Assembly (NCBI GenBank): GCA_036172245.1
Contig: JAYWIR010000188.1
Coordinates: forward strand, 1 to 36,114
Direction: 5' to 3'
From: Raillietiella orientalis
Taxonomy: Eukaryota
DNA length: 36,114 bases
A program made the position numbers and the translations under genes. Of this stretch, positions 6,961-35,502 are shown piece after piece; position 1 is the first letter of the stretch, and each line of letters begins with the position of its first letter. The notes beneath the pieces were generated by a model. It saw nothing but the letters and a program-made list of their open reading frames with translations, was not told where the DNA came from and ran no database searches.

Positions 6961-8724
6961 GCCCGGCGGCGGAAGGGGGAGGCAATGTCCTACCTCATCC
7001 CCCTCCTCCATGGGGGTCGCCAGCTGCTCGGTAGCGGAGGGTGGGAAAATCCCTCCCTCCGTTCCCACGCTGCCGGATTCCCCCTCGGCTGCCGGTGCGT
7101 CCCCCTCCTTCTTCGTCGGGATGCGCCTCTTCGGATTCTTGGACTTCCGTCCAGTCTTCTTCGGAGGCGCCTCCGCGGAGAAGGACGCACTTCCGGTATC
7201 CGGATCGCGATCACCTGAAAGAGGTGCCTTGCTCGCAGCCGGCCTTCGCAAGGGCTTTCGCGCGCCGTTCTCACGGTCCGCGAGCTCGGCCGCGAGCTCT
7301 TCCGCCGCCTGTTGGAAGGCGGCGTCCTCGATTGCGGCGAGCGCGTCGCTTGGCTCCCCCTCTGTTTGCACAGAGGGTTCGCCTTCCGCGATCGCGGCTT
7401 CAGCGTCAACGAGGCGGGGGATATCTCCCCCGGTGGAGGTCTCGGGGATCTCCACTCGCTCCAAAGCGACCGAACATTCGCGGAGTAAAGCGCGGCGTTG
7501 TCTCCTATTTAATTGAGATGTCGCGGGTTCCGCTGTCGGTTCTTTGGTTTTCCTGGGTTTTTTACTTTTGGGCTTCGCCGTCCGCCAGCCCTCGTTCTCA
7601 TCAGCGTCGTCGGAAGTTTTCTCGACCGGCGTTTCCTGGGAGGGTTCGGGCACATGCTTTTGGCTTTGCTGCTCTGTTGGCTCATTGGACTTTCGTGCTT
7701 TCTCCAAGCGTTTCCCCTTACCTTTTTTCAAGGCAGAAGGCGCTGGAGGTTCCCGCTTTGGGCACACTTTCCGGAGGTGGCCCTTCTCCCCGCAGTGGAA
7801 ACACTGGATGTGAGGGCACCGTTTTTTCAGGTGCCCTGTTGCATCACAGTGCCAACAGTACTTGGGCTTGCCCACGTAGCAGACGTCGACGACCTCGTTG
7901 CCGACGTCGAGTTTGTGGGGCAGCCCACCGTTTTCGTGGACCGTCACACGCGCTGCAGCCATGCCACTGAACAGTCTTCCGTATGTTTGGAAGAAGTTGG
8001 GCTTGGTCCAGAGCGCGTGCACCGTACCATGTTTTTGCAACTCTTCCTGCACGCCAGCTTTGGTTATGCGAAGAGTTACACCGGTTAGGTGTGCAACAAT
8101 GGAGCGGTCCTCCGTTACGGGGAAGACCTTTCGGCCTTCCAGAGTGATGGGAGTGTTCAGTAGGCGCTGAGCCAGACTTGCATTTTTGCAAGTCAGCTCC
8201 ACCCGCTGAACACCACTTATCACGGAGAGACCTTCCAGGTCTTCCTCTTTCACATCCAACCGCTGTAACTCTCTTTCAAAGTTACGAGCGGTGTTTCCCA
8301 CAAACAGATTTCCTACCTTATAAATCAAGGATGGTTTATACCCTTGATCCCGGTAGGCACACTGTTCGGCAATGGCTTCAGGGGATGGTGCTGCAGCTAC
8401 GGCGCTCCAGATCTTCGTCGTTGCCGAGGAAGGATCCAAGGATGCGGTTGCCCCCTTTTTCAAGGGGGCGGTTGCTCTTTTTTCCGGGGTGACGTTTTTC
8501 CCCTTTTTCAAGGGAACGGTTGCACCCTTTTGCACGGGGGCAGTTGCTCCCTTTTTCAAGGAAGCGGTAGCCCTCGTTTCCGACGGGACGGTTGCCCTCT
8601 TTTTCAAGGAGGCGGTTGCCCTCGTCTCCGTGAGGGCGGTTGCCCTCACCTCAATGGGTTGGGGAGAGGAACAAGCCTCGCCCCCTCCGATCTCCATCGC
8701 GGTGTCCTCAGGCATTTCTGCCAT
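6925..8724 (-). CDS. Non-LTR ORF1 protein (two CCHC zinc knuckles, Lys/Glu-rich tail); C-terminus cut at a junction near 6961
   Basis: Long open frame (ATG at 8724, MAEMPEDTAMEIGG) containing CWHCDATGHLKKRC and CFHCGEKGHLRKVC. The element's 5' motif GGACGTGTTTTTTCC begins at 8810. Confidence 0.88.
   Translation of the reverse strand: MAEMPEDTAMEIGGGEACSSPQPIEVRATALTETRATASLKKRATVPSETRATASLKKGATAPVQKGATVPLKKGKNVTPEKRATAPLKKGATASLDPSSATTKIWSAVAAAPSPEAIAEQCAYRDQGYKPSLIYKVGNLFVGNTARNFERELQRLDVKEEDLEGLSVISGVQRVELTCKNASLAQRLLNTPITLEGRKVFPVTEDRSIVAHLTGVTLRITKAGVQEELQKHGTVHALWTKPNFFQTYGRLFSGMAAARVTVHENGGLPHKLDVGNEVVDVCYVGKPKYCWHCDATGHLKKRCPHIQCFHCGEKGHLRKVCPKREPPAPSALKKGKGKRLEKARKSNEPTEQQSQKHVPEPSQETPVEKTSDDADENEGWRTAKPKSKKPRKTKEPTAEPATSQLNRRQRRALLRECSVALERVEIPETSTGGDIPRLVDAEAAIAEGEPSVQTEGEPSDALAAIEDAAFQQAAEELAAELADRENGARKPLRRPAASKAPLSGDRDPDTGSASFSAEAPPKKTGRKSKNPKRRIPTKKEGDAPAAEGESGSVGTEGGIFPPSATEQLATPMEEGDEVGHCLPLPPPGGRVFPSLPSES
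8440..8645 (-). repeat. In-frame coding minisatellite in ORF1 (KK[G/R]AT[A/V]P[L/S]-type units)
   Basis: Recurrent TTTTCAAGG.GGCGGTTGC units encode ETRATASLKK twice and several KKGATAP variants. The repeat is absent from the paralogous ORF1 copies. Confidence 0.85.
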
Positions 8725-8810: not shown

Positions 8811-10725
8811 GCGCGCCAAGTTGCTAGCGAAGGTTAGGGCAGAGTGGTTGGGACGGGTTGCCAACATCTTCATCAGCCCGGAACAGACATATGCTGTTCC
8901 CAGGCGAAGCATGGAGGCGATCCTGTTCCACGCTTCCACATGGTTAGAGCTCCAACAAGGAAGGGGCTTAATAAGCATCCGGAATTCCGGTGCGTCCGTT
9001 GGTGGGAGACGGGGACGGTCGGGTGGGGAAGGGAGCCCTTGCGGTCGCAGTCGACTTTCGTAAAGCATTCTACAGCTTTGACCAGAATCTCCTGCTGGAA
9101 CTTCTGGAACGCTTGGGCTTCCCGGCCTCATTAGTGGCCTATCTGCGCTCCAGCTGGCGCGACGCGCTCATCAACGTTACTTTCAGCGGGCAGACCGTGC
9201 ACGGCGTGCCGGTGCTGCGTGGGATCCGGCAGGGAGACAGTCTGAGCTCGTTGCTCTTCAGTACCTACTTTGAGTTGGTACTAAGAGCGTACAGGGAAAC
9301 TCTGGCTCACCTGCCGAACGACTGTGCCGGTACGCCTGCCGTTTCAGCGTACGCCGACGACCTTCTGCTGCTACTCCCTATGTCCACCCCGGCTTCGGCG
9401 GTCGAGGAGTTCTTCGACCTGCTGCATCGGGGAACCGGGCTTACGGTGAACAGGGCGAAGTCGTCCGTAATGCCAGTCGGAGCGGCGTGGGTAGGGCAGC
9501 AGGACTGGGTCCGTTTGGGGATCCCCACGGTGAGGTACTTCAAGTACCTTGGTGTGTCGTTTGGGGATTATTCCCCTGCGGAAGCGTGGTCCGGCTGCAT
9601 TCATGAGGTTCAGGCGGCGATCGGCCCGTTCCAGGACGGCAGGTTCTTCCTGCAAGAACGGGCTGCGGCGTGGAAAGCGTTTGCGGCCCCCTTTCCTTCG
9701 CCCCTTACTTTTTGCTTGCCTCCCCTCAGCGGAGATGAAAAAGAGGACGAAGGACCTCCTGAGGATAGCCCTTTGGTGCAGAGGGAGGCCCCGAGTCCGT
9801 CTCGCGGACTTGTGCGATCCGCGTCGGGACGACGGTCTTGGCCTCCTGACGCTGGAGCGGCTGGAGCTTCAGCTCCAGTTCCGGTCTGTTGCCTTCATGG
9901 CGAAGAATTGGTGCACCGCCTGGTGCCTCCCTGCACGTCTCCTCGTCGAGCGGGCCACCGGCAATGCGGGACTCTCGTCCTACTTTGAACTCCGAAGCCC
10001 CATCTGCCACTGCAGACTTCAGCTTCGGAGGGTGTCCAAGCTCGTGAAGACCAACTCGGCGCGGATCCTCGTACGCCCCGCGAACGGTCCTGTCTGGCTA
10101 CAGGAAATCGTCCGCACGTGGGCGATGACTCAGGAGCAGAGCCCGCAACACGAGCGAATAGCTCTGTTCGGGCCGCACGCCCACCGCACGCTCCGAGAAA
10201 TCGTCGAGGATCCCCGAAGGAGAGCGTGGGCACAAAGAATCTCCCTTGCTGCGGTACTTATGCCTACCCTAAGGGAACATCTGGGCAGTGACGTCGCGGC
10301 ACAATGGGAGGTTACCGTCGAGATCGCCGACAGGGTACAGAAGATCGGGGATTGGAGAACGGGTCAGCTGACCAACGCTGCGACCTCGAGGACCACCCCA
10401 CACGGACTCTTGCTCTGGGGCGAGCTACTGGATGTTCCGGAGGAACATCTCGAGTGGCCCCCGGTGCTCCTGGACTCGCGCACCCTCCCCATGAAGTAAC
10501 AACAGTCGGCACTGCTGTTCCCGCTCCCTCCCCAGTTTTGTTTATTTTTCGTTTTTTTTTTTGTTTCATTCCCCCTCCCCTCTGCTGCCGAGGTCAACCA
10601 CGCCGGTCTGCGCACCGGTAGCCCGGCAAGCTGATACTTTCTAGGGCGTGGCTGGACTACTGGTCCAGTCACAGTGTAGATAAGTTTATTTGCAAAAATA
10701 AACGTCCCGGCGCAACCGGGATTAA
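8811..10725 (+). mobile_element. 3' portion of non-LTR ORF2 (RT) plus 3' UTR; sister copy of 1922-4300 with an internal deletion
   Basis: Motifs AKLLAKV...ISPEQTYAVP, VDFRKAF, GIRQGDSLS, AYADDLL and KYLG, with frameshifts. It lacks the region equivalent to about 3665-4090 (CCHC finger). Ends with AATAAA (10697) and TCCCGG-CGCAA-CCGGGA. Confidence 0.9.
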
Positions 10726-10732
10726 ATGAAAC

Positions 10733-10835
10733 CCTACGTGAGTACACGGCGGCACTGGAGCGCGTCGCCGTTCCTGAGGCTGTCACCCGTTGTGAAGAGC
10801 CTCCCGTCGCCGTTTTCGCCGCGCCTGAGGACTCC
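10733..10835 (+). pseudogene. Short internal ORF1 fragment (family L)
   Basis: Translates LREYTAALERVAVPEAVTRCEEPP, matching LRECSVALERVEIPE in the 8724-6925 ORF1. Confidence 0.65.
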
Positions 10836-10849
10836 GGTTTGTATTTAGG

Positions 10850-11460
10850 GTATAGGGCATAGTTCCCTGTGACTTTGGTACATATGTTCAGGTCAAAGAT
10901 TTCCTTCGAGGTTCTCTGCTGGATACGAAGAAGGGTAGGGCAAGGAGAATAAGGGTTGATGTATATGTCGCTGGAAAATTTTATAATTGCTGTACATAGA
11001 TGCAAAGAGATCGCGGTAATTGTTCTTTGAGGGATTGCGAGCAATTTTAGTAGCCTATCATTTTCGGGATCCCATGAGCTGAGCGCACCAATTAGAAATG
11101 CTTGGTTGATGGTACGCAAGACTTGAGTCCTAAGGACGCTCTCGATCTCTGCGTACTTCAGGATCTTGGTTTTCCTTGCACGCTGTAGCGATGATATACG
11201 ATTTTCAGATGAGATAACAACGTGGACGCATTCTTCGCAAAAATATTGAAGGGATTCAACATATCCATTTGGCGATCCTTTTGAGCAACGGGTCATCGAG
11301 GGGAGAGAATCATGATCAAGGTATCGACAACAACATTGAGTCATTGAATGATCATTGTCCCAAGATAAACTGAACAGTGACACAGGACATGCGCCAATGT
11401 TTCTTTTACACATCCACATCATCATTTCTTTTACACAGCCACATTTTACATCACCCACAT
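10850..11460 (-). mobile_element. C-terminal remnant of an RLE-type non-LTR element (NeSL/Utopia/R2-like)
   Basis: One frame gives CGCVKETLAHVLCHC...IQ*LNVVV (CCHC knuckle plus decayed RHN). Another gives ENR...RARKTKILKY...FLIGALSSWDPENDRLL...FSSDIY. The segment is AT-richer than its flanks. Confidence 0.75.
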
Positions 11461-11469
11461 TCCGTACTG

Positions 11470-12549
11470 TACGGTGGATGAGGTCTGGAACAGCCAGAAC
11501 GCCTGGCTGCCACGTTCTTCGTCGAAACACTGTCTGCCCTCGAGGTTCGAGAAGAGAGTAGCCAACCGGCAAGGTGGAAGTTCTCCTGCACCATCGCGGG
11601 TAGAACGAGACGCATCCGCGAATAGGACACGAGCGAGCTGGCGGATGCCGCCACTCCTCGTGCTACAGCAGAGGGATTACTTCGGTGGGGAGAAGCTCTT
11701 GTTGTTGCTCTTGAGAAACTGATAGTTCCTCCCTGCTGTTTGGACGGTTCGGTGTTTCCCCTTGCATGGAAGCAAGACGTCCTGCTCTTCTTGTACTGGG
11801 GCTTGCGTTACAACGAGCGGCGTCACCGAGTTTCCGGTGGGGTGGCTTCTCCCTACTGTGCCCGGTGCGGGGCGACGGAGTCGTTCCCGCACCTTGTTTT
11901 GGACTGCGGTGCCCTCTAGGAACTCCGGCGGAGGTTGGCAGTAGCACTCCTACCACCGGAGGACACCGCCCGAGAAGTGCTGCGACGGTTTTTCCAACCG
12001 CAAGGACTTTCGACGGCTGCGATGATTTCCACAGTTGGTTGCATCCGCGCCATCGTCACGGTCCGAGACGTGCTGGAGAAAACTGGCCAGCGATGCTGTG
12101 TCACCAGGAAGGCAGCCGACTTCATCATTGCGGCAGCTAAGTGGCGACAATTGAGCAAAAACGTAATGGAGGAGCTCATCGGCATCCATCTTAGGATTAA
12201 GCACGGTTTGGAACGAGGAACCCGGTGATCCACCCCTATTCCCTTTAACTCGATTTTTGTTCTCGCGTCCCTCCTACCATTCGCTCCGTAGTGCTTTTGG
12301 TGCTTTTCCTCTTTGTTTTTACCGGTGACTGCGGAGCGCCACCAAAGTCCCCTGGCCCATCCCTCCCATTTCGACATTTCTTTTTTTGTTGGTAGTCCCC
12401 TCCTCCCCCGTTCGTTCAGGTCCTTCCGTTTTCCTGGCCAGCGCGCCAGTGGTGTATCTCCGTTGCTGGTTGTTGTAGTCGTTGGCTGAAAACGGCTGTT
12501 TCCAGCCAGTTTATGTCAATAAACGTCCCGGCGTAACAGGATAAAAAAA
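11470..12549 (+). mobile_element. 3' fragment of a divergent L1/Tx1-like element (ORF2 C-terminus plus 3' UTR)
   Basis: CARCGATESFPHLVLDC finger at about 11857-11910, a pyrimidine-rich 3' UTR, and a terminus AATAAACGTCCCGGCGTAACAGGAT followed by an A-run (12518-12549). Confidence 0.75.
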
Positions 12550-12647
12550 TTTAATTTTCGCCTTCATGGGAGACGGATGTGGATTCGTGTTGCTCCGTTG
12601 ATCCGCTGTTTAATTGTGCTTGTGCGTCCCACTGCCTAGTCCTGAGG

Positions 12648-13730
12648 ATGAGCAGTGAACAACGCAACGTGGAAGTTGTCGAGCCAGTGGTTCAGGAATT
12701 TCCCACTGCGGGAACGATGGCGACAACCTGTGCGAGCCCCGCGACACCGGCCAGGAGCTTCGCGGACCTGGCTGCATCTGCAGCCGTACAAGGACGCCTC
12801 CTCGAGCAGGCGGAGTTGCAGGCATATGTAGCCCAGGGCTACAAACCTACTCTCCGCTATAATGTAAGTGGGGTAGGCAAGGCTGGAGAAGAGTTCGCGG
12901 GCGAACTTTTCCGTGTGGGAGTGCGAGAGGAGGACCTCATAGCACTCATGCCTGTTCCAGCATTGGGCTATGTAAAGGTCCGATGCAAGCAGGCTGCCCT
13001 TGTGCAGCGGCTCCTCCGCACTCCTTTGTTCATCCGCGGGAAGAAAATATTTTTCACCGCGATGGACGAGTCTTTTGTCGTTGTTCTCTCGGACATCGAA
13101 ACGGAGATCAACGACAAACAACTGATCACTCACGCGGTGTGGAGGAAGAGGAGTTCCTACAAGAAGTTTCCTCCTGTCCACACTGGATTTGCTTCCATTA
13201 GAATGACCGTCCCTAACCTTCGCACACTGCCTGCTACTCTACAGGTCAACGGCACGGTCGTTCACCTGTGGATCGCAGGTAAGGTTCCCACGTGTGGGCA
13301 ATGCGGCAGGGAAGTGCATCGAAGAAAACAATGCCCTTTCGCGAAGTGCCGCTATTTCAAGGAGCCCAGGAACGATCCCAGGCAGTGGCCGGATATTGAA
13401 ACAAGAAGGAGAAGGCTAGATTTCGACGCGCGAAGGGGAGCGCAGGGGAGAAAACAGAAGCCCTTTAAAAACAGATGAACACGCGAAAGCTCGCGTAAAC
13501 CCGGTCCGGTGGCCCCTCAAGCGGCTTCCTCTGCTGCGAAGCCCCGAAAGGGCAATCGCTCTGCCGGGAAGCCAGTTAAGAAAGGGCGCGGGGGCCCTTT
13601 CTTAACTGACACCTCTGCCGAATGCGGAGTTTACGCTCCCGGAAAGGGGTCTAGGAAGCCGTTTGCACCGTGTGATAGCGTGGAAGTTGGTGATGAGGAT
13701 CTGGATAACGTGCGAACCGTATGCACAGAT
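12648..13730 (+). pseudogene. ORF1-like gene of another non-LTR subfamily, frameshifted and truncated
   Basis: SFADLAAS...QGYKPTLRYNV...REEDL...LVQRLLRTPL resembles family L ORF1. Degenerate knuckle CGQCGREVHRRKQC. Starts about 100 nt after the preceding element's tail. Confidence 0.7.
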
Positions 13731-15120
13731 GCGAGTCAGGATTTGCTCTTGCTGTAGCGCGTCCGGCTCCTGGCCGACCTCCTCCACAACCTTCACCAAG
13801 TCCTGGCTGTGCTGCAGGACCTCCGGCGTCGCCACGGTGAGTTCATTAACATTCATTTCGTCGTCTTATTCGGCGTTTTCCTTCTCTGTTGCCTTGTAAG
13901 AGGGTTCTTGTTCCTTCACGAGCAAGCTCTCCTTAACTCCTTTTGTGTGTTCAACGAAGCCGTCCGCCGAAACCGAAGCGGCCTCCTCCACCTTTCTCTG
14001 ATTCTTCGCCTGCCTTAGGCTTTGTCACCTTCGCCGAAACCTTCTCCCGCACGGGGGAGTCCATGCATCGTACGCCAGTAGGCGTACTCGGGACAACACC
14101 ACCTCGCATGCCCCGGCTCCTTACAAAAGACGCGCACCTCGGGTATGTCACAGCTGCTAACCTGGTGTCCCTGCTTGTCGCAGCGGAAGCACCGAGACCT
14201 AGGGCACGTGCTCACCCGATGACCGAAATGCTTGCACCTGGTGCCGAACTTCGTCTGCGGGCGATACTTCACCAATACTTCCTGGGAGTTCCCAGCAATA
14301 TGATTAGCCCCCGGAATCTGCACCTCCTCGAACAGCTTAATTTTGGCAACCACATCGCCTGAAAACACGTTTTGGAGAAGTTCCGGAATTCTACTTTCAA
14401 AACCTCTCCGTATTTGGCGACGAACGCCCGCACCGCCTGCCTACTGGTGGTCCCGTAGACACCACCGAGAAATATCGTAGTATACGGCATATCTCGGATG
14501 CCTCGTACTATCCTGCCTTGGATGTTTATGCCCTCCTCGATCAGGGCCTCCTTCAGTTGTTTACAATCTGTGAAGGTTGTGAACCCGCTCATGCTTGGAA
14601 TTATGGCTTGTACTGTGTCAAAGTTGACATTTGCCTGGTATAGGGCCAGGTACACTTCCCTAATGTTGTGGATTCTGATCAGTCCTGTTTTAAAGGTGAT
14701 CGGCTTGACATTCGAGCCCATCTTAATGATGGGCTCGTCAGTGTTCTCAATTTTGTCCGTCACGGGCTTGCTAAACCTCAGGGCCGGTCGGATGGTCGCC
14801 GTCCCCGCCACCACAGCCTCATAGGAAAACGCTCGCCGCCCCACGGTCGCAGCCGCACAAGATGGCATGGCGTGCGTAGCGACGGGTAGGCCTATTGGCC
14901 CGCTTGTCGCTCCGGCGACCGTTGTCGCCGGGGACGCCGCCGCCCCCGCACCACAACATTCGCCTGACGCTACCTCCAGGGCTGGGGTAGCTCCGGCCTC
15001 TCCGCCATCGCAGCGGCCTGCTGCTGCATCCTAGCGGCGGGCACTGCCATCGCCGCTGCTGGTGCTGTCGAGAGTCCTCAGCCACACTGCACAGCACTGC
15101 TTCTACCTTTAGATTACGAC
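13728..15120 (-). mobile_element. Family S element, ORF1 remnant, 3'-truncated
   Basis: IREVYLALYQANVNFDTVQAIIP, FSGDVVAKIKL and CKHFGHRVSTC/CFRCDKQGH are homologous to the ORF1 at 30111. Confidence 0.85.
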
Positions 15121-15214
15121 TTGCTCTAAGAGGGCACTCACAAAAATTAGGAAAACGCTCTTTTCGACGCTCCTGGTGTCACCCGAAAGGCGTGAAAAAG
15201 GCGAAAGAAATGCG
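15121..15214 (-). pseudogene. U5: 5'-truncated, altered U5 snRNA copy
   Basis: Minus strand reads CGCATTTCTTTCGCCTTTT...GGAGCGTCGAAAAGAGCGTTTTCCTAATTTTTGTGAGTGCCCTCTTAGAGCAA. It matches the U5 at 24835-24718 from about nt 28 onward and shares about 23 nt of 3' flank. Confidence 0.85.
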
Positions 15215-15215
15215 G

Positions 15216-18200
15216 TTTTTCCCAAATCCCACAAGGGGTGGGGTAATTTATTTAACATCCATACTACAATCACATTCACGCAATCGAAACTTTTTGTTCC
15301 GCACTTGTGAGTTCATTCCACTATCAATTGGGGAGTCACTCGGGGAAGACCACGTTGGATTTGCAGTTTGGAGGACTACGTGTGGGTTTGGGCTTGAGCA
15401 ATACTTACTATCCCGCAAAGGATGTACTTGTACGGCCAGGCTTATACTTTCCCGCAGTTCCTGATTCCAATTTCCTTCTGGACGAGTCCTTGGAGGATGT
15501 CCATGGGATGTGCTGCTGTTCGGGTTTTCGCCATCTTCCACCATCGGATCAGGATGGCTTTGATGGACAAAGCAATGGTTATCCTAGCCATCGGGTTGTA
15601 CAGAGGTACATTGGCGTTCCCTTGAAACATCCGAGCTAGGACTTCCGTGGTGGTGACGTCAGGTAGTCCTATGACCCTTTTCAGGGTCTCCCAGTCCCGG
15701 TGGATTGCGGGACAGGTTAGGGCGTGGAGTCTTGTTTCCCAATCGCCACACGCCTTGCATTTCCCGTCTTCCACGTTTCCCGTGATGTGGTAGATCCTGT
15801 AACCACTCTGAATTCCTTCTTGATAAAACATCAGGAGCTCGTCCTGAGCGTTCGGCGGTAGGTCACTCCTCCATAGTGTTGTGCCAATCGCCAACAGATT
15901 GATCCTCAGACTTCCGTGGCGATCGGCAGCTTCATGGAGGGCACTGATGTCCTGATTGTCGTCTTTAATCATCCTGCGGAGGTTTTTCCTATCCACCCTG
16001 GACCACGCTGAGTTGCTGTGGTTTTTCCACACCTCGCGGGTCCTGTGAGTGAATTTTCCCAGCACCATCTCGATATACCGAAGTATACGAGAATGGCGAA
16101 GGTTTCCTCCTCTTCTCCATTCCTGGATTTTCTTCAGGGTAACTCTGGGCCGCTGGCGGATCCAGCTTCTTGTGTCAGGAGGCACGCGAAGCATTCTAGG
16201 GATCACCAGGATGGATTCCTCCTGCCAGAGTTCCCTGCTTCGTGGCACAATCTTCAGCTGGTGTTTTTGTACCAACTGCTGTTTCCTCTTCAAGGTGGGA
16301 TCGATCGTGTTCCAATCTCCTGCTTGACCTAGCAGCGCAGTCATTGGGCCCTTCGAGTTGTTCAATGACAACGAATAGGCCCTGTGCGCCGCATACGGCC
16401 AGTCATTTCAATGAGCGGCGATCTCCAGGATTTGTCGCTTATCATGATATCCACAGAATGTGCAAGCGACTTCATCCTGGTCCCACCTTCCTCATTGAAA
16501 CGACACAGTGGTTTGAGTCTTACTCTTGGTCTGTAACTACCCCATAGTACTTTTCGTTGCAACTTTTCTACTTCTCTGCGGGTTTTCCTGTACATTCTGC
16601 TAAAGGCCGCCCCGAAGAGGATCTTCGGAAGGATTACTCCATTCCACAGGTTGGCCTTCTGCTTCATGCTGAAGTCCGTCCGCGTGTACTTCGTCGCTTC
16701 TTCTGCTGAGTTTCCCAGGATTTCGGTCCATAGCAGCTTCGCCGTGGAGTCGTCGCCAATGTGGATTCCGAGGTACTTGGCGCAGTCCACCGTTCGGAAT
16801 CCTTCCTCCGTTAGTGGGGAGAGATCCAGGATTCCGACGGGCAGAAGTTGACTGTTCTGGGCATTGATTTTTAGCCCAAATCCTTTTTCCATCATCTCCA
16901 CCACATCCAGGAACGCATACTAATCTCGTTCCTCCTTGATAAAGAAGAGAAGATCATCCGCGTAAGCCAGATGGGTGAGCTTCTGGTCGTCCATCTTGAT
17001 TCCTCGTAGGCGTCCACTTCTTTCGATGAATGATGTCAGAGCTTCCATGTAGATAACAAACAGCATCGGAATTAGCGAGTCGCCCTGGCGGACTCCTCGT
17101 TCCATGCTGATAGCTGCTGTTTCTGCTCCGTTGATCTTGATACGAAAGTGTTGATGAGCAAGTAACATCCTCACGAAGTTGCTGAAGTGCTCCGGGAGGT
17201 CCAGTTTTCCCAGAATCTCCGGCAGTATCCCATGGTCGATGGTATCGAAGGCCTTCTCCATGTCTGTGAACACCAGCACCAGGTTCTCGCCGACGTATCG
17301 GCTGAGTCCCACGGTGGCCTGGGCACACTTGACATTGTCCGACATGTGGCGTCCAGGCACCGCACATGTCTGGACTGGAGAGATTAGCTTCGGCATGATC
17401 TTGGCTAAGTGGTTGGCCCAGATCTTCGCCAACCACTTGGCGTTGGAGCTGAGGATTGAGATTGACCCCCATTGGAAAACCTTGGTTAGGTCTCCGCCCT
17501 TCGGCAGCAATCTCATCCTGCTCTCGTAGAAGGACGTTGGTAGTCTGTCTTCTTGCCGGATGCATAGGGTCAGCTGGTGGAACAGGCGCAGGTAGGCGTG
17601 CAGGTACCGCTGGTAGTGAGAGATGGGAACACCATCAGGACCTGCCAACACGTCCTTGAGAAGTTGCGAAAACGCAGCTTCACCTCTTCTTCGAAGAAAT
17701 CCTCTTCCAAAATCTTCCGCTGGCATTCATCTATCTTATTCTCCAAGTAGCCTAGAAAAGCATTTTGTGTCGCCGGGCACAGGTGCTGGTGCCGGAAGTG
17801 TCCCGTGTAGTGCGTCTGGAAGGTTTCCACGATCTCCTCCGACGTGCGCTGACTGTGGCCGTCGTACTGGATGCAGAAGATGTCTGTTGCCAGATTCTTC
17901 TTCTCCAGCACGCCGACTTCCCCTTTGATGTTTGTGAAGACGTACCGTCTCTCGTTCTCTTCCCAGTACTTTGAGAGGGAGTGATCTTCGGCTTTCTGCT
18001 CCCAGAACGCTTCTTGCCTCAGTCGCTTGTCTCCGTACTGCATGTTACAGAACAGATGGACTTGATGTTTCAGGCTGTCCCATTCGGCGACCCTTCGGAT
18101 GATGCTGGTACTCAGGAACGTCTCGATCAGTTCTTGATGACTGGGAAACGTCCCGAACCAGGCGGACATGCAGATGAGCGCCGCCCCTGTGTTCTGCTTC

Positions 18201-20619
18201 CTCCGAGGATTTTCCGTTCTTAAGGAGAACCGCACCAACGGGTGATCGGACAGTGAGGTGGGCGTGTCGCGAAAATCTTCGATGCGGTTCTCGAGCTCTG
18301 TGCTGTGTAGGACGTGGTCGATCGGCTTGTGGCCAGCTGTTCGCCACAAAAGTCCGAACTCGTCTGACAACCGCCGATACGACGTCCTTTCTCTGGCGCC
18401 CCGGGTGTGGATGATCTCCATGATGTTCAGATCGCCGGGGACGATCACTTCGTCCTTGGGTGCGACCTACTGCCGGAGTGCTGCATGCAGCGCTTCCGCG
18501 CACTGATGTTTTTGCGTGTGTGTTCCGTACGCGCTTACCAAGAATATGTGAACAGTAGCGGACCACGCTAGTCGTACACCGATGATTGGTCCGGCATGGG
18601 ACAGAAGACTTCCGGGACTGTAGGGGCCAGGTCTTTGTTCACCAGCACCGCCACTCCTTCAGTGTTCCTCTGTCCTTCGCTGACGAACATTTGCATGTTA
18701 AGGCATCGTTCCATTTCCAGGCTGATCTGATGACCCAACTTGTGGGTCTCTTGCAAACACGATGTCTTCATGTGCGATCTTGCGCGCGATTCTTTTCCTT
18801 TTCCTCTGGTCGATCAGTCCATTAACGTTCCAGGAGGCGATGTTGAGCCTCCTGGCGGTGAACAGCGACGAGGCCAATGAGGGGTTCATTTCTCTTTTCT
18901 GAGCTTCTTCTGTAGGGGAGACCGTTGCAGTCTCTCCTACGAAGAAGCGGACTTCTCACTCCCGGCATCGCTCTCCGTGCCGGTGGGATCTGTCAAATCT
19001 GGTTCCTTGATTGAACGGTCGATTTTGGCGACCGCCTTGCGCGGAAGTGTCTCCTCGTCGACGTCCGCACAGTACGCCGCCTTCAGTTCGAAAAGCTTCG
19101 TCTCCAGCTTTTCGCGTTCTGACACGGTCACCATTCTGTTGATGTCCTATTGGACCTCGCAGATGCGAGCCAGGATTCGTTCCTGCTGCACCGCAGTTGA
19201 CTCATGTTGGACCTCCTTCACATACTGAACCACCTCCTCGGTTATCTGCAGAGCCTCCTGCGACACCTGGGGATGATCAGCCACCTGCATTTTTTCGCCT
19301 TTCTCTGCTTTTTCTGCCTCATCGACCTTCTGGGAGGGTTCTTGCTCCTTCACGAGCAACCTCCTCTTGCCACCCTTTCTGACCTTAACAAAGCCGTCTG
19401 CCGACGCCGGCGCGGCCTCCCTTGCCTTCTTCAGCCTCTCCACAAGTTTTGGAGGTTTCGCTACCTCCGCCAGCACCTTCTCCCGCACGGGGGAGAGTCC
19501 ACGCATCGTTCGTTAATTGGAGAACTCGGAGCAACTCCACTTGGCAGCCACTTGGCCCGGGCTCCTTGCAAAAGAAATACGCCTCGGGCATGTCGCAGTT
19601 GCGTACCCAGTGTCCCTGATTCCCACAGCGGAAGCCTCTGGATCTCGGACAGGCACTAACCCAGTGGCCAAAATTCTTGCACCCTGTGCAGAAAACTGGC
19701 TGCTCTCTATATCAGATGGAGACCTCCTGGGAGTTCCCATCAATCTAGGCGACTACTGGAATCTGCACTTCCTCTGCAAACTTTTCCTTCGCCACCACCT
19801 CTCCCGAGAAAATATTTCCGGAGAAATTCCGGAATTCCACCTCCAGAACCTCCCCGTACCTCTCCAGTAACTCCCACACTGCGTCCTTGCAGGTGGTTCC
19901 ACAAACGCCGTCAAGATACACCGTGATGTACGGCATCTCACCGATACCCCGGATCACCCTTTCTTGGAAATTCATGCCCTTTTTGATAAGGGCCTCGCGC
20001 AGTTGTTCACAATCGATAAAGATTGTGAAGCCTGACATGTTCGGTATGATGAACTGTACCGTGTCAAAGTTCACATTGGCGCGGTAAAGGGCCAGGTACA
20101 CTTCGCGGATGTTGTTCATCTTTACGAGGCCCGTCTTCAAAGTGACGGGCTTCACGTTCGGGCCAGTCTTGATAATGGACTCCTTCATGCGTTCTATTTT
20201 TCCTGTCACGGGCTTGCCAAAACTTTGGGCCGGTCGGGTCGTCGCCGTTCCCGCCGCCAACGCCGCATATAAAAACGGGGCCTTCGCCGCCGCCGTCGAA
20301 GCAGGCTGCCCCACGGTCGCAGCCACCGAGCAAGATGGCGTCGCGTCACCAGCAACGGGCAGGCCTACGGGCCTTCCTGTCGCTCCGGCGACCGCCGGTG
20401 CCGCGCCAGAACAATCTCGAAGTCCTACCTCCATGGGCTGGGGTGGCGCCACCGTCTTCTCCGCTGCCTGCTGCTTCTTCATCCTCGCGCCTGCAGACGC
20501 TACCGCTGGGGACGATCGCAAGGTTTACACCTTGGACTCCCTGGCGCTGTTGCTGCTGCTGCAGGTGGTGGGGGTCCTTGGCTGAGTACTCACTGTCACT
20601 GTCTTTGCCACTTGGGTGT
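15216..20619 (-). mobile_element. Full-length but inactivated family S Tx1-like element (ORF1 plus APE-RT-CCHC ORF2)
   Basis: ORF1 pieces span 20521-18937. ORF2 pieces carry WNVNGL, QETH, GDLN, IDHV/SDH, DMEKAFD, GVRQGDSL, YADD, KYLG and CKACGDWETRLHALTC, collinear with 31679-35206. The 3' end is AATAAA-TTACCCCACCCCTTGTGGGATTTGGG-AAAAA (15252-15216). Confidence 0.93.
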
Positions 20620-20760
20620 TGCCCTCTCGGGGCCCTCAAAAATTGCAGCGGCTGTTAGGTTAGTCACTGCCTTGGCGGGGTATTGGGTATAGTTTTCAAC
20701 TAACAATAATCGCGACTCAATTACGTTCAGCAGCGGCGAAATTGCCCGTGAGCAAGAGCC
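20620..20760 (-). ncRNA. U4: U4 spliceosomal snRNA gene or pseudogene, apparently full length
   Basis: Minus strand reads GGCTCTTGCTCACGGGCAATTTCG...GCGATTATTGTTAGTTGAAAACTATACCCAATACCCCGCC..., then Sm site AATTTTTGA and 3' hairpin GCCC-CGAGA-GGGC. The core matches the conserved U4 GCGATTATTGCTAATTGAAAACTTTTCCCAATACCCCGCC. Confidence 0.92.
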
Positions 20761-20782
20761 TCGTGATAATCATATCAAAATC

Positions 20783-23700
20783 TTTCTCAGTCCGACGTGC
20801 GGTGGGGCAATCTTATCGTTTGCAGTCAATCAAACAAACAATCGAGGAGACAGGGAAGATTGGTAAGCCTTTCGGGAATGTACTTTGGTTTGTCTCTATT
20901 CATGTCTTCACCGGGCAAAGATTCGTTTTTTGCATACTCGAGGACGAAGGATCAGGAAGCAAAGAGTAGGGAGGGCAATTGAGGGATGGGTCGTTTAGTA
21001 CACACTACTTTGTGCCTCCTGGTGTCATGTCAGGATCCCCTGTCTGTCAGCTTTCTCAATCTTTCGAAGGACGTGGCTGAAAATCCACATGCTGACACCC
21101 TAGCCCCTCGAAGCTTTGTCTTCCGGATGAGGATGTTCGAACGAAAATGCCAAAATGCTCCTTAGAGTGGATTGTAAGGGGGAGGAAACAGCCCCCTCTC
21201 CTTAGATTCCTCGGAGGGTCCCACATCGAAATGGATTTTGGAAGTTCATCGCCTGCTTCGCCACCCTCCTCCACTCTTTGGAGAGGATTCTGCAGATGTA
21301 CAGGTGGAGTGGGGCTTCTAAGATCCCTCACGCGGGACAGGCTCCACCGTTCGGGTTTTCAGTCCAATGTCGGAGCCTTGTGCCGCACAGGATCCCTCCG
21401 TGGAACACCAGGAGGCAGTCCCGAATCTCTGGAGGCAGTTCTGACCTCCAAAGGACGGTCCCTATGGCTATTGGATTTAGGACCGGTTTCCTGAACCTTT
21501 CCCACACCTTTGATATCACGTCCTCGGCATTGCTTTTCGACTTGAAGAGACATCCAGTCCTCGGGGTTCCACTCTGAGCCAATGCGAGTCCTGGTCTTGG
21601 CAGAGTCCGCGGGTCCCGTTAGTCATCCATCCTTGCGGCTGGCGCTTGTAATGCAACACTTTGCTTTCGTGGATGTTGGTGGCGAGGTGCTCTCATTCTG
21701 CGATGGTGACTGTTTTTATGCTCTAGAGCAATTTTTGTGTGGCAGAGGACACGCTGAGGAATCGTGAACGACCAACTCTTTGCCCCGAGGTTCCCTGCTT
21801 TTCTGGACGATCCCCGAATTCTTTCTTCGTGCCAGTTCTTGTTTCCTTCTCGGTGTGGGGTCTGTCAGGTACCACTGTCCTGTTGATCCGTGCAAGGGGC
21901 GCACCAGGCCCTCGGTCCCGTTGATACTCGACGCTCCTTAGGCTCGATGGGACGCATATGACCATTGGTAATAGGCGCCGACGTGCCTGATGATGTGCCG
22001 CAGGTCCCGGAGAACTGGGCAACGTGCGCCATGACTGTACCTCCTTCCTGGAGCGGTCAGCACACATACGCTTACTCTCGGCATCCGGTCACTGCTTGCC
22101 AGGTGTCGCCGGATGTAAGCCAGGTTCGGTCACCTTCTCCGGCATGCTGAGGAAGACCGTCCCGAGCGAGAACTTGGGTGTGAACACCGGTTTCATTGTC
22201 CTTCTCCCTCAGGGAGAAGTTCGCTCGCGCCTTGGTGGTCCAATGTTTGATTTCTGACTCTTTCCAGGATGCCCTTCAATTTGAGTCCTCAGAGTGCCAG
22301 TGGTCTTTTGGCGTCTCCGATGCGGACTCCCAAGTGTTTTGCCACGGCTGCTGTCCCGATTCCGTGGGATCTCAGGGGGGTGACGTTTGCTGTCCGGTTT
22401 TCATGGCCAAGGCGATTGTCCAGAAACGGCCTTCCATCCTGCTCGTCTGCCATGACACGAAGAGCAGATCGTCGGCGTAGGCCAGGTGGTTGACTCTCTC
22501 CCTTTCCGGGGCGAGTCCCTGCGGTGGACTCGCCGCCGTCGCGTAGGGCGACACCTGGTCCATGTTCAGAACGAAGAGCACGGGGCTCCAGGTTTCTCCA
22601 TGTCGGACTCCCCATTCGAACATCCGGTGATGCCAAGGCCGTTGATCCTGACGGCGAATTTTGCTTACCGCGTGAGTGGTCAAGGATTCTTATTCGGAAA
22701 ACCCGTCTTCCCGAGGATCCTGAGCAGCGTGACGTGATCCCTTCCGATTCGAAGGCCTTCGCGATGCCGATGAGGAGTGCAGCATCAGGTCGCTTCCCGG
22801 GATGCGCCTGGATCCTAGCAGGGCTTGGGCGCGCTTGACGTTCTCCCATGCGTCCTGCTTGGAACGGCGCACGTCCGCGTAGGAAAGACCACAGTCCCGA
22901 GGCACTTCTTCAGTCCGTCTGCCCGGATCTTGGCCATCCACCTCGCATCCTAGATCGACCTCCACTGGTTGGTGGACCAAAAATTGCCACCTCCACCCTT
23001 CGGGAGTTACCGCAACCACCCCCTGCTACGATGCAAGGAGGCGGGAAGTCTACCTCGATCCTCCCTCGGACCCGGATGAGCAGCTGCCGGAAGAATCGCT
23101 GGTAGGCCAGCAGGTGCCGCTGACAGTGCGTTACGGGCGCGTTGTCGGAACCTGCCGTCACGTCCCTGCAAGGCCCCGGGAACGCCGCTTTGAACTCCTC
23201 ATCGTCCGTAATTTCCGCTTCGATCTCTGAGGACTGTCGTGCGGCCAGTAGTTTCACCGCACGAAGACGCCTCGGTTCCGAATTCCCTGCCCGGAACAGC
23301 CGGGAGAGGCAGTGGCAGAAAGCGCCCACCCTCTTGTTCCGACGTTCGGCAGTCGGTGTCTCGATATTAGATGTGAAGGATGTCTGTGGATTGGTCTTGC
23401 TCCTCCCATATTTCATTTACGTCCTTCTTCCCTCTTTTGTCCGGGTATCTACTCTGGGGCTCTTCCCAATACGCGAAGTGAAAGGCGTCGCGTCGGTGGA
23501 TCCCCGGGCAGGCTTCTTCTCGAAGTGTCCTGTCGTCGAATCGCATGTTTGAGAAGAGGTGGTGGACTGCATGTTCAAGGCGATCTCAGTCGTCTACGGA
23601 GTGGATGGTGCTTCTGGCAAGGATTGTCTTCACGACGCGCTGGTATTGCGGGTAACATTCGCATCAGACTAGCATGCATATGAGTGTTGGCCTTGGCTAC

Positions 23701-29000: not shown

Positions 29001-29809
29001 ATAGGGAAAAGGACCAATGCACCGCACACCCTGCACCCAAACCAAAAGAATGCCTCCAGCCTGTATTCAACTGCAAACAACGCAGACACGACGATTTTGG
29101 CAACCTTAACCAAGGAACGGGTAAAGGAGCTACTCCCTCACGTAAGAGGCCGCCTGCAGGGAAAATGCAGGAGGACAGGAGGCGGAAACGACGAAAGGAA
29201 AGCGCCTGCATCGAAGACGTGAACGAGATGACAGCCGGAAGCAGTGCACAATTTCCAGAACCGGTGGTTAGCGACAAACGTTGACAAGCAGCAAGCGGAA
29301 ACACGATGAGAACAGTCCATCGAACCTACGACACGCGAAAGGAAGCTGGGCAGGAAAAGTAGACAAAGAGGCAAAACCAAACGAACAAGCTCTAAGGCGC
29401 ACACACCAACGGGAAGCACGCTTTGCAAACGCGGAAAACCGCGGCGAAACAACGCTGGGATCGACTGACGTCGGAAGCACGTGCGCAGCATACGGAGCGA
29501 CCAATCGCACAGCGGCAACGCCGCACACTCGCAGCAATGGGGCAACGAATAGTGCACAGAAAGCAAAAGAGAGGGAAGCAGAGATGTCAACAAGGCAAAC
29601 ATCAATCCGACTAAACTCTCGCCAAACCAAGGCAAAACAAAAAATAATACAAAAAATGTTTAGTACAAAAAAACAAGCACAGCCACAAAAATATCACAAA
29701 CACATGCCACAAATAACACATTGAAGAAATACTGCGCAGCAAAAAACATCCAGAAACTGCGTGAAACTCAACAGTAGAAACAATGCCAAATTCTAACATA
29801 TACAAAATC

Positions 29810-29972
29810 ATACTTACCTGGCTTCGAGGCGATCTTGGTCACCATGGAGATCCCTCCAGAGTGAGGCTCGATCATTGCACTGCGATTGGGCTGACCTCTG
29901 CGATAACCCCAAACGTGGGTTACTCGGAAGCATAATTTTTAGGCTGGGAGACTGCGTTCGCGCGGACTCCTG
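29810..29972 (+). ncRNA. U1: U1 spliceosomal snRNA gene, full length (about 163 nt)
   Basis: Begins ATACTTACCTGG. Stem I is GAGG-C-GATCT/AGATCCCTC. Stem II carries the U1A loop ATTGCAC (29874-29880). Sm site AATTTTTAG, terminal stem with a TTCG loop (CTGCG-TTCG-CGCGG). Confidence 0.97.
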
Positions 29973-30110
29973 CGAATTTCTTCAAAGTAAGTGGTTTTTT
30001 TCGAGTGCTGTGTGGAAAGTGGTGCCACAGAAAGGGACCGTGGACTTTGCCCTACCACCCAGTGTGCGGAGGAGGACGTTGCCCCACGGGATCGGCCCCA
30101 GTGGGGGAAA

Positions 30111-31672
30111 ATGGAGGCGGTGGACGTCTCCACATGTGCGAGGCCGGTAGAGGCGCTGGCGGCGAGATCGGCGGAAGGGCCGAACGCAGCGTGCGCGGGA
30201 GCGGCGTCCCCTGCAACGCTCGTTGCGACGCCCGTATCGATCCGCCCTGCGTCGTACGCGGCGGCAGCAGCGGCGGCGCCACCTGGAGGTTGGAATGCGG
30301 CGGCGGTGAAATCGGTCGGTTTTCCGGGAGTGCCTCCGGCAAAACCGAGGATCCCTGTCCAACCAACAAGGTACATCCTGGACGACGAGGATGAGCCTAT
30401 ACTCGTCCTGCCGGCAGATGTCAAGCCGGTAGTTTTTAACTGCGGTCCCCTTCGTTTGGCAAACGTGAAGGACATTTACATCGCCCTTCATCAGAAAAAC
30501 GTCGATATGGACGTAGTTCAGGCCATGATTCCGTGTGGGAACGGTTTCACCATTTACACGTCGTGCGATCCCCTCATCGAGGCACTTTGCGATCACGGCT
30601 TGACCATCAGTGGGAAGCTATTCCGTGGAGTAGGAGAAACCTCCACGACGACAGTGTACCTGAAAGGGGTTGACTTTCACACCAGCAAGAAAGTCATCAA
30701 GAACTTCCTGTCGCAGTACGGGGAAGTCCACCATCTGGAGATACGGAACCAGTTTGGTGAGATCTTCTCCGGAGAAGGATTTGCCAAGATGCGCCTGTAC
30801 GAAAATGCGCAGATGCCTGGCGTGGCTTACATCGACGCGTATTCGCAATCGGTGATGTTCAAATACAGGCAACAACCTGTATTTTGCGCAGGCTGCAAGA
30901 CGTTTGGGCACCGCATCGGAGCATGCCCTAGGGCTCAATGTCACCGATGCGGCCAGCGAGGCCACTTCTTCCGGGAGTGCAACCAGCCCATAAAGTGCTA
31001 CTTCTGCGGCTTGTCTGGTCATTCGAAGAAGGAATGCAGGCGATACGCCGCATGGAGGGACGCACAGGGGCTGCCACCATTAACGGTGGAACCGCAAGTG
31101 CAAACGGAAGAGGAGAAGAAGACTCCTTCGGCCGAGGTGACTGCCAGGAAGGCGGCAGAACTCACCGAAGGGAAAAGAAGCCCGCAAAGGGGAAGAGAAA
31201 GACAGCACCACAACCTTCTGTGGAAGCGCCGGCGGAAGAGGCCGAGCCAGCCAAGGAAGCGGTGGAAATACAAGCTGCAGAGTTGGCGGAAGTTGCCAAC
31301 GTAACAGCAGAAGTGCAAGAAGTCGCGAAAATCGTGCAGGAAGCAGTAACCAGAGAAGCGAAGGCAGAAGCTCTGGAACGCATCAGCCGGGTGGAGGCCT
31401 CCATCAACGAGCGCGTTCCAGACGCGGCCAAACGCTTCCAATTGGAAGAAAGGATGCTGGAAGTGAAACAGCGCTTCGCCAGAGGGGAGCTTGAGGATCT
31501 GCAATATGCAGTCCCTCGAAGCGTCCTTAATGAAACGAGGCACTCAATCGCAGACAGCACCGACTACGTCGGGTCAGAAAGCGACGTAGGAGATCAGCGA
31601 GACGCAAAGGGGGGGACGACAACGTCTCCCAAGAAGAAGAAGAGCAAGAGGAAGAGCAGGTCCTCCAACTAG
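30111..31672 (+). CDS. ORF1 nucleic-acid-binding protein (three CCHC knuckles), with one frameshift near 31173
   Basis: Knuckles CAGCKTFGHRIGAC, CHRCGQRGHFFREC and CYFCGLSGHSKKEC. The C-terminus continues in the 30938-31672 frame, which matches the paralog piece at 19506-19147. Confidence 0.88.
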
Positions 31673-31678
31673 TCCCCT

Positions 31679-35206: not shown

Positions 35207-35324
35207 CCCTAGGAACACATACAGACCAATTGTGAAAGTGAAATGTATCACGGTCATACAGACATTAAAAGTTTTAATGAATGTGAATTAGGATGATTGG
35301 AGTGAAAGGAATTTTGTTGGTTGC

Positions 35325-35360
35325 AATAAATTCACCCCACCGCTTGTCGGACTTGGGGAC
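35325..35360 (+). terminator. Element 3' end: AATAAA plus hairpin CCCCA-CCG-CTTGT-CGG-ACT-TGGGG
   Basis: A related motif ends the family S copies at 15252-15216 and about 20816-20785. Confidence 0.7.
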
Positions 35361-35361
35361 A

Positions 35362-35502
35362 ATCTTGGTCACCATGGAGATCCCTCCAGAGTGAGGCTCG
35401 ATCATTGCACTGCGATTGGGCTGACCTCTGCGATAACCCCAAACGTGGGTTACTCGGAAGCATAATTTTTAGGCTGGGAGACTGCGTTCGCGCGGACTCC
35501 TG
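35362..35502 (+). pseudogene. U1: 5'-truncated U1 snRNA copy (nt 23 to end)
   Basis: Reads identical to 29832-29972 (offset 5530) and lacks the ATACTTACCTGG splice-site pairing end. Confidence 0.95.

Follow-up and report, generated by a model that had tools for sequence, protein, structure and literature searches.

We analyzed a single 36-kb window of the genome of Raillietiella orientalis (the whole stretch from position 1 to 36,114 of contig JAYWIR010000188.1, forward strand), which has a GC content of 52–61% and consists mostly of nested non-LTR (long terminal repeat) retrotransposons. None of 14 ORFs (open reading frames) checked turned out to be a host gene. Rfam identified U1, a second U1, U5 and U4 small nuclear RNA (snRNA) sequences in this window, and U2 was absent by the same search. 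Our best reading, to which we give a probability of about 0.6 as a whole, is that the window contains two head-to-tail arrays that diverge from each other and belong to a deep-branching clade of L1-superfamily long interspersed nuclear elements (LINEs), and that this clade is specific for snRNA genes transcribed by RNA polymerase II (Pol II), the targets here being U1 and U5. Two clean junctions and one secondary junction between LINE 3' ends and snRNA genes were available for the analysis. The snRNA sequences detected by Rfam were as follows:

29810-29972, plus strand: full U1 snRNA gene (RF00003, 132.9 bits, model positions 1-166)
35340-35502, plus strand: second U1, with the first 22 nucleotides (nt) unlike the U1 model
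24832-24718, minus strand: full U5 snRNA gene (RF00020, 81 bits, model positions 1-117)
20759-20621, minus strand: full U4 snRNA standing at the head of a LINE (RF00015, 63.1 bits, model positions 1-138)

The full U1 is preceded by A-rich non-LINE sequence and is the promoter-proximal gene of the plus-strand array. The full U5 is preceded by ~1 kb of non-LINE sequence and holds the same position in the minus-strand array. The second U1 and a further U5 sequence were resolved by BLAST with the window's own snRNAs. The second U1 corresponds to U1 nt 23-163 at 35362-35502 and is identical to the first at 141 of 141 positions. The U5 remnant consists of nt 25-43 at 15214-15196 (19/19) and nt 64-115 at 15173-15121 (92%); Rfam missed it even at a lax threshold, and a control alignment gave z = 26.9. 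Within the remnant, an unrelated sequence of similar length (15195-15174, minus strand) replaces the match to U5 nt 44-63, a segment that comprises part of loop I and the descending stem, and both sides of the replaced stretch are kept. The regions upstream of full U1 (29756-29777, plus strand) and full U5 (24886-24865, minus strand) have in common the words ACTRCGTG at -54 and CTYAACWGTA at about -42.

All six copies of the snRNA-associated clade that retain a 5' end lie directly behind an snRNA gene unit. These copies, together with the head of copy X, were located by open reading frame (ORF) lists, Pfam, alignment and tblastn:

30030-35361, plus strand: U1 copy 1, apparently intact (ORF list, Pfam)
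35560-36114, plus strand: U1 copy 2, 5' part, running off the window (alignment to copy 1)
24687-20781, minus strand: copy U5a, ~3.9 kb, heavily decayed (tblastn)
20620-15216, minus strand: U4-headed copy, 5.4 kb (ORF list, tblastn)
15090-13726, minus strand: copy U5b, ORF1 region only, the remainder missing (alignments, tblastn)
28671-25866, minus strand: copy X, internally deleted and decayed (tblastn)
28790-28672, minus strand (approximate coordinates): U5-like head of copy X, decayed, nearly full length (local alignment)

U1 copy 1 carries ORF1 (ATG at 30111, to 31304) and ORF2 (31679-35206, 1175 amino acids), the latter encoding an apurinic/apyrimidinic (APE) endonuclease and a reverse transcriptase (RT). 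Its conserved 3' motif lies at 35335-35351, and its tail reads ...GGGGACA. Over 772 aligned columns, among them a duplicated block of 198 nt described below, U1 copy 2 is 91.6% identical to copy 1. Strong difference between the two copies (30030-30370 versus 35560-35890, plus strand) is confined to the 5' untranslated region (UTR) and the start of ORF1, where identity is 68-96% with several indels; beyond this stretch it is ~99%, which suggests a hypervariable N-terminus or a recombinant origin. The U4-headed copy has its ORF1 ATG at 20482, its 3' motif at 15243-15227 and an A5 tail. Its ORF2 (18877-15388) is broken, with 1167 of 1175 residues covered, 8 stops and at least two frameshifts. Copy U5a is in a poorer state, as 717 of 1175 ORF2 residues were covered by tblastn, with 15 stops within the matches; these 15 stops fall in ~785 aligned residues, compared with 8 in ~1506 for the U4-headed copy. 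In copy U5b, the ORF1 ATG at 15029 is followed by a stop after 19 codons. The ORF1 regions of U5b and the U4-headed copy are 68% identical at the nucleotide level, and the likeness of the two bodies begins only at the ORF1 ATG. The LINE-specific 5' UTR of the clade measures only 15-81 nt. The head of copy X gave no Rfam match even at a lax threshold; its local alignment to U5 plus flank scored 61.5 (shuffles 33.3 ± 5.5, z ~5.1). U1 was tried as the identity of this head as well, scored 46.0 (shuffle mean 39.4, standard deviation 6.5) and was dropped in favor of U5.

The recognisable 3' ends of the clade cluster at snRNA genes, with three of the four found at most 25 nt away from an snRNA unit's first base. 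Such clustering is very unlikely to have arisen by chance (below 1e-5, as a rough estimate based on five clear units in 36 kb), although the insertion events may be non-independent. The 3' end of U1 copy 1 is joined to U1 at 22|23 (BLAST, alignment), in agreement with the reading made earlier from the sequence only, which had placed this junction at +23. That sequence-only reading had also described the LINE at 20619-15216 as following a full U4 and as abutting U5 with its A5 tail at about nt 28. The full U4 was recovered by Rfam, and the contact with U5 was confirmed, but the junction lies at U5 nt 25 (sequence, BLAST): the copy ends with ...GGGAAAAA(C) at 15216, directly followed by U5 nt 25. 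Likewise, the U5-headed copy upstream, U5a, does end shortly before U4, although the distance to the Rfam start of U4 is 19-21 nt rather than ~23 nt; the end of U5a was placed near 20781, at GAGAAAGATT, beyond which it no longer resembles copy X. As to insertion at a fixed nucleotide, the window offers one junction at U1 22|23 and one direct and one inferred junction at U5 24|25, and copy X lies outside any recognisable snRNA.

In both arrays, an intact, promoter-bearing snRNA gene stands directly before the LINE and a 5'-truncated copy of the gene stands behind it. The gene remainder and its 3' flank are present twice:

29832-30029, plus strand: upstream U1 block, U1 nt 23-163 plus 57 nt of 3' flank (198/198 identical to 35362-35559)
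35362-35559, plus strand: downstream U1 block, U1 without nt 1-22, plus 57 nt of flank (BLAST, alignment)
24808-24688, minus strand: upstream U5 block, U5 nt 25-117 plus 30 nt of flank (82.5% identical to 15214-15091)
15214-15091, minus strand: downstream U5 block, U5 nt 25-117 (nt 44-63 replaced) plus 30 nt of flank (BLAST, sequence)

The order of parts is promoter, snRNA nt 1-22 or 1-24, gene remainder with flank, LINE, gene remainder with flank, and next LINE. Past the 198-nt U1 block, the two U1 copies differ by a 6-nt indel, and identity then runs at 68-96% for ~340 nt before it rises. The U5 duplication (~124 nt) is decayed; its likeness stops 30 nt past U5, and the bodies of U5a and U5b are unrelated beyond this point. 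As part of the best reading, the head is probably the upstream half of a long target duplication, which is the simpler explanation.

The snRNA units extend past the mature RNA. The motif AAARNNAGW occurs 10-14 nt past the snRNA end in all five clear units; in the window as a whole, counting both strands, there are 24 matches versus 17 expected. It reads AAAGTAAGT behind U1 (29984-29992, plus strand), AAAGGCAGA behind full U5 (24707-24699, minus strand), AAAGACAGT behind U4 (20606-20598, minus strand) and AAAGGTAGA behind the truncated U5 (15110-15102, minus strand). This pattern fits the core of the 3' box consensus, the element that, in the available part of the source, directs processing by Integrator (PMC9006982). 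Because a 3'-box-like motif follows each snRNA end, the heads appear to be gene units and not copies of mature snRNA.

Two further features were observed in the flanks. Behind U1, a perfect 5' splice-site word, AAA|GTAAGT (29984-29995, plus strand), overlaps the 3'-box-like motif, and GTGAGT is found a few bases past the motif behind U4 (20598-20585, minus strand); these words possibly indicate an intron in the 5' UTR or, in read-through RNA, a site where U1 binds. The word AGTGYTGTS is present at ~30001-30009 (plus strand) and at 24691-24683, 15094-15086 and 28653-28645 (minus strand). It lies 3-12 nt past the 3'-box-like motif behind U1 and U5, and in copy X it stands where no box-like motif was noted. 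The word is located at or near the end boundary of the duplication and could serve as a signal for the second cut or for termination.

The protein encoded by the intact ORF2 assigns the clade to the L1 superfamily, as an N-terminal APE-type endonuclease (PF03372, 8.9e-19, residues 15-214) is followed by an RT (PF00078, 2.2e-30, residues 462-710), and the catalytic columns of both domains are conserved in the alignment. The best relative of solved structure was human L1 ORF2p (8.1e-57, versus 5.7e-24 for R2). In the protein libraries, relatives were 26-34% identical and comprised a mixture of L1-like proteins from plants, an alga, fish, turtle and coral; no relative above ~34% identity was found in two very large libraries. 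Residues H1055 and C1059 at the C-terminus of ORF2 are conserved with these relatives. Matches of ORF1 to CCHC knuckles were weak (18-20 bits, below the Pfam cut-offs). In a quick tree of 100 unnamed or mixed rows, built without named Tx1 references, the window copies grouped only with P0038. The deep branching of the clade is a probable part of the best reading. Within the clade, the families that cut U1 and U5 are only ~45% identical in the endonuclease part of ORF2.

The four 3' ends have a common terminal motif, ACCCCACC(G/C)C..GT(C/G)GGA(C/T)T, followed by 8-10 purine-rich bases; in copy X it takes the form CCACTGCACGTC...GAGAGATT. There were three exact matches to the motif, all of them LINE 3' ends. 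As a loose pattern (up to two mismatches) it was not enriched, with 6 matches against 4.0 expected.

The U4-headed copy is the case in which head and target differ. Its head is separated from the U5a tail by a short segment:

20780-20760, minus strand: 19-21 nt without a match elsewhere in the window or to snRNAs

The U4 head has no room for a promoter of its own because the LINE 3' UTR starts 19-21 nt upstream, and no U4 fragment was found in the window downstream of the copy. Taken together, these two observations suggest that U4, its flank and the 19-21 nt arrived with the LINE. The mismatch between U4 and U5 thereby speaks indirectly for joint transcription of an snRNA gene and the LINE that follows it. 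Both U5a and the U4-headed copy are at present enclosed by the halves of the U5 duplication, and U5a is the more decayed of the two copies, which suggests that the U4-headed copy entered later, at the old junction of U5a with U5 nt 25. According to this scheme, U5a would have inserted at U5 24|25 and made the duplication, and the U4-headed copy would then have entered exactly at that junction as a co-transcript (19-21 nt, U4, flank, LINE) from a U4 locus, inserted by its own proteins or by those of a related family. Since homology at the site was lacking, no duplication would have been made. By that time the junction would have been ~4 kb away from the U5 promoter, with U5 nt 1-24 missing next to it. 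Such a setting speaks for recognition of the downstream half-site, or for mobilisation by a relative that is specific for U5 and has the same 3' motif, and argues against a distance from the transcription start as the deciding feature. The junction that the sequence-only reading had placed at -23 of U4 is most simply secondary and not a target position. Its proposal that heads and targets appear interchangeable is supported in so far as head (U4) and target (U5) differ in one copy. The U5b body is also the nearest to the U4-headed body (68% in ORF1), which indicates that heads have been exchanged.

Relatives of the clade were sought in other genomes. One metagenome scan and two viral-contig scans revealed no close relatives, and a second metagenome scan returned 80 loci with 23-31% identity. 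Comparison of these 80 loci with the U1, U4 and U5 of the window (blastn, nhmmer) produced no matches; this screen was insensitive, as Rfam later found snRNAs in one of the loci, L007. Of 39 of these distant L1-like loci analyzed with Rfam, L007 was the only one with an snRNA, namely a full U2 before the LINE and a U1 fragment behind it. Its candidacy as a second snRNA-headed element was rejected because an additional record, G001, shows that this U2 is a neighboring gene: in G001, U2 and U1 form a tandem unit of 2081 bp with 216 nt between them. The LINEs of the L007 family in G001 are preceded by U1 nt 1-15 and followed by U1 from nt 3-4, with a duplication of ~12 bp (U1 nt 4-15). Other LINEs of G001 have the arrangement U2 nt 1-32, LINE with poly(A), U2 nt 38-192, which is the Keno/Utopia site. 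These relatives in G001 behave as classical sequence-specific elements.

The L007 family comprises 270 library proteins at E <= 1e-30. Its ORF2 contains APE, RT and zf-RVT domains, its ORF1 has weak CCHC matches, and its ORF2 is 27% identical to that of the window and not sister to it in the quick tree. The family thus resembles the window clade in its two ORFs, in its position at the 5' end of U1 behind the promoter and in its residence in snRNA arrays. It differs in the length of the duplication (~12 bp versus 198 bp) and in its upstream U2, which is a mere neighbor. Copies of the family were found at L007:72-6146 and on contigs C5, C46, C57, C68 and C71 of G001 (loci L105-L112), directly behind the U1 promoter, and the U2-site LINEs were located on C46 (reverse complement, 10206-15876) and in similar places on C68. 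A U1-specific LINE was absent from the published target lists examined, as far as these lists were available. The G001 record is labeled as a metagenome-assembled genome of Anaerolineae (loci L081-L114); among its contigs are eukaryote ones, which bear 19 U1 and 23 U2 matches as well as numerous LINE copies, and contamination or mis-binning is evident. In the 3' UTR of the L007 family (L007:5925-5945, L022:2345-2365), GGTTCGATTCC, a tRNA T-arm or B-box word, lies in a GC-rich stretch, which may indicate a tRNA-like 3' structure.

The mechanism that we favor as part of the best reading is that these LINEs nick U1 at 22|23 and U5 at 24|25 and rebuild an intact gene upstream, that the arrays arise from repeated hits and that the U4 head was carried in by co-transcription. 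Insertion would start from a sequence-specific nick in the 5' part of the gene, where target-primed reverse transcription would take place. A second-strand cut just beyond the 3' box could give rise to the long duplication, or else a read-through cDNA (snRNA, flank and LINE) that joins the target gene by homology. The rebuilt gene would keep the host snRNA copy alive, and read-through from its promoter would transcribe the LINE; the very short 5' UTRs suggest that the LINEs depend on such read-through. With the promoter-proximal gene hit again and again, older units would be displaced outward, and the two arrays would result.

Several points weigh against this reading. The sample is small and comes from one window, so that the reading rests on the two clean junctions and the secondary one. 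The sequences around U1 22|23 and U5 24|25 have no clear common motif, only ...GCG before the cut, and the two cuts lie at almost equal distance from the start, which favors targeting by position. Copy X provides the one 3' end of four that does not fit an snRNA-gene target; its 3' flank (~25866) had no detectable likeness to U1, U4 or U5 and no Rfam snRNA at a lax threshold. A predicted hairpin at the LINE 3' ends was no better than in shuffled sequences (z -0.7 to +0.5), and the candidate proximal promoter word common to U1 and U5 was not significant (equalled in 229 of 2000 shuffles). That the flanks of 57 and 30 nt are native is a presumption, and a staggered cut and a carried head are inseparable within the window. 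The read-through step is deduced from sequence only, and the order of insertions from decay compared across different families. Finally, the U4 head calls for an extra assumption, namely 5' transduction together with either cross-use of the U5 site or mobilisation in trans.

The sequence-only reading had placed the 3' ends of the elements at about -23, +23 and +28 of three snRNA starts and had suggested that targeting may be by position, for example through the transcription machinery. The first part was upheld: these LINEs reside in snRNA genes, with their 3' ends in or next to the 5' part of snRNA units. The second was weakened, though not refuted, because the head is half of a duplication, the '-23 of U4' junction is secondary and the LINEs of G001 sit at fixed nucleotides. 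Ty3 and the Dictyostelium TRE elements are guided by transcription factors to fixed distances from Pol III genes, and the window would be analogous in that integration takes place beside small-RNA genes; unlike for those elements, a sequence-specific nick explains the present data at least as well. A positional model, in which a machinery tethered to the snRNA apparatus (SNAPc or the pre-initiation complex) nicks ~20-25 bp from any Pol II snRNA start, would account for the nearly equal distances at the unrelated U1 and U5 and for their use by families with such divergent endonucleases. It would also agree with the difference between head and target in one copy, and with a second boundary that tracks the gene 3' end (57 or 30 nt past it) and not a fixed distance (198 versus ~124 bp). 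A fixed distance whatever the sequence fits the insertions at +22 and +24 but neither copy X, which ends away from any snRNA start, nor the U4-headed copy, which most likely entered ~4 kb from the promoter and without U5 nt 1-24. The junction at about -20 of U4 is not independent, a significant common promoter word is missing, and LINEs of snRNA genes use fixed nucleotides in the G001 arrays examined and in the available part of the literature (PMC4640811). Targeting by position is therefore unlikely in our view. We are equally doubtful about its extension, in which both breaks bracket the snRNA transcription unit through the transcription and 3'-processing apparatus (pre-initiation complex, Integrator zone) and not through DNA sequence, the first break falling ~22-25 bp past the start and the second immediately past the 3' box, irrespective of gene length or sequence. 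If this were true, any Pol II snRNA gene (U1, U4, U5) would be a target, and every hit would restore a functional gene from which the element is driven.

Should the window instead derive from a pre-existing compact snRNA cluster (U5-U4-U5, U1-U1), in which insertions deleted the spacers back to the preceding 3' box, the heads would be mere neighbors. Kojima and Jurka offer this as one reading of the Phytophthora U2 arrays in the available part of their text (PMC4640811), and the apparent U2 head of L007 and G001 is indeed the neighboring gene of the U2-216 nt-U1 tandem unit. However, G001 retains the spacer and U1 nt 1-15 upstream of the LINE, whereas here the 5' part and the promoter of the target are gone. 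Moreover, the 5' boundary is the same despite unrelated bodies (U5a, U5b and X switch after ...GTGYTGT ~30 nt past U5) and is also the same in both U1 copies, so that the same large deletion would have been required several times; we consider a cluster distinctly improbable. Concatemers formed at the RNA level, by an RT that jumps between snRNA-plus-LINE transcripts, would turn the junctions into RNA 5' ends and not DNA targets. The head-to-tail arrangement of all units is in keeping with this, and end-to-end template jumping by LINE RTs is cited in the accessible part of PMC4494074. Yet this would call for RNA 5' ends at nt 23 of U1 and nt 25 of U5, and no process is known to produce these; the greatly differing decay among units of one array points to separate events. 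An exact 198-nt duplicate beside an intact promoter-bearing gene is not predicted either, which makes concatemers very improbable. Chimeric retrocopies of the U6-L1 type, in which a switch from LINE RNA to mature snRNA adds the 5' head (as proposed for SINEU), have a full-length snRNA directly 5' of the LINE as their known signature (Buzdin 2002, Garcia-Perez 2007, cited in PMC4494074), and Tx1-type elements have repeatedly added U1 and U2 to SINEU, as far as the accessible text of PMC4494074 goes. Every head here runs past the mature 3' end into the 3'-box-like motif and a common flank (57 nt for U1, 30 nt for U5), and non-LINE sequence precedes the heads at the array starts. The flanks already contradict such template switching, and we give it hardly any credence.

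Among known systems, the closest arrangement is that of Utopia in the Phytophthora U2 arrays, where an intact U2 lies upstream and U2 from nt 39 lies downstream, and where deletion or duplication is left open in the portion of the paper available (Kojima and Jurka 2015, PMC4640811). The window resembles that portion's account in the intact snRNA gene upstream, in the 5'-truncated gene joined precisely to the LINE 3' end and in the presence of several families per array. Utopia is described there as having a restriction-like endonuclease (PD..D/ExK) and as using U2 only; the ORF2 of the window has an APE-type endonuclease, its targets are U1 and U5 and not U2 with a 3' flank from ~nt 38-39, one head is U4, and the duplication is directly visible (198/198). 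Keno uses the same U2 site as Utopia (Kojima and Fujiwara 2004, as cited in the parts of PMC4494074 and PMC4640811 available). Keno and Tx1 elements, to judge from these parts, are likewise APE-type two-ORF LINEs that insert in the 5' part of an snRNA gene; they do so at a fixed nucleotide, as the window clade may do, but the classical Keno-type structure has a 5' gene fragment upstream, as in G001. Tx1 families with a U5 snRNA target are mentioned in the legend to Fig. 3 of PMC4494074, in the part at hand. The specialists for snRNA genes listed in the accessible text of PMC4640811 are Keno and Utopia (U2) and the DNA transposons Dada-U1 and Dada-U6. The chimeric retrocopies of snRNA and L1 and SINEU also carry an snRNA at the 5' end of the retroposed unit; according to the available text of PMC4494074, their heads arise when template switching adds mature snRNA, and gene flanks are missing from them, and SINEU is short and non-autonomous. 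In the window, the heads do not end at the mature snRNA 3' end and include the motif and 30-57 nt of common flank.

The R9 element of bdelloid rotifers, attributed to work by Gladyshev and Arkhipova in 2009, reportedly duplicates an unusually long stretch of its target site, 126 bp. R9, too, is a site-specific LINE; it occupies a multicopy RNA gene and doubles more than 100 bp of its target, but it is an R2-type element of 28S rDNA and is not known to have been described as rebuilding a whole gene and its processing signal. Among the papers that our literature search returned, none dealt with LINEs that carry a U1 or U4 gene at the head or sit in one, nor with a long duplication by which an snRNA gene is rebuilt. 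The published snRNA-gene targets of LINEs, in the texts available, are U2 (Keno, Utopia) and U5 by a bare mention for a Tx1 family. What appears to be new here is an L1-like lineage that would use U1 and U5 and carry U4, and a 198-bp duplication that would restore a gene and its 3'-processing signal. Such a duplication offers an explanation for the intact U2 genes upstream of Phytophthora Utopia. It also suggests how a parasite of a low-copy essential gene may spare its target while borrowing a strong promoter, and the mismatch between U4 and U5 gives an entry point for understanding changes of target in such elements. For safe-harbour integration, LINEs homing into multicopy RNA genes serve as models.

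Minor observations concern the flank of copy X and two further LINE families. The 3' flank of copy X (25866-25790, minus strand) contains an Sm-site-like AATTTTGG, a possible short hairpin and, ~35 nt later, AAAAGACTT. This layout would resemble the 3' end of an Sm-class snRNA gene, for which no family or likeness was found. Families Y and Z of the window are more distant LINEs, with 20-29% protein identity and one short match of 34%, and no snRNA was found at their ends in the window. A family-Y copy contains a perfect tandem duplication of 276 bp (100% identity; 1922-2473, plus strand) in its RT region. Copies of family Z stand head to tail at 6963-7383 and 537-700 (minus strand), and the 5' end of a Z copy is twice directly preceded by the ORF2 start of another, 3'-truncated Z copy.

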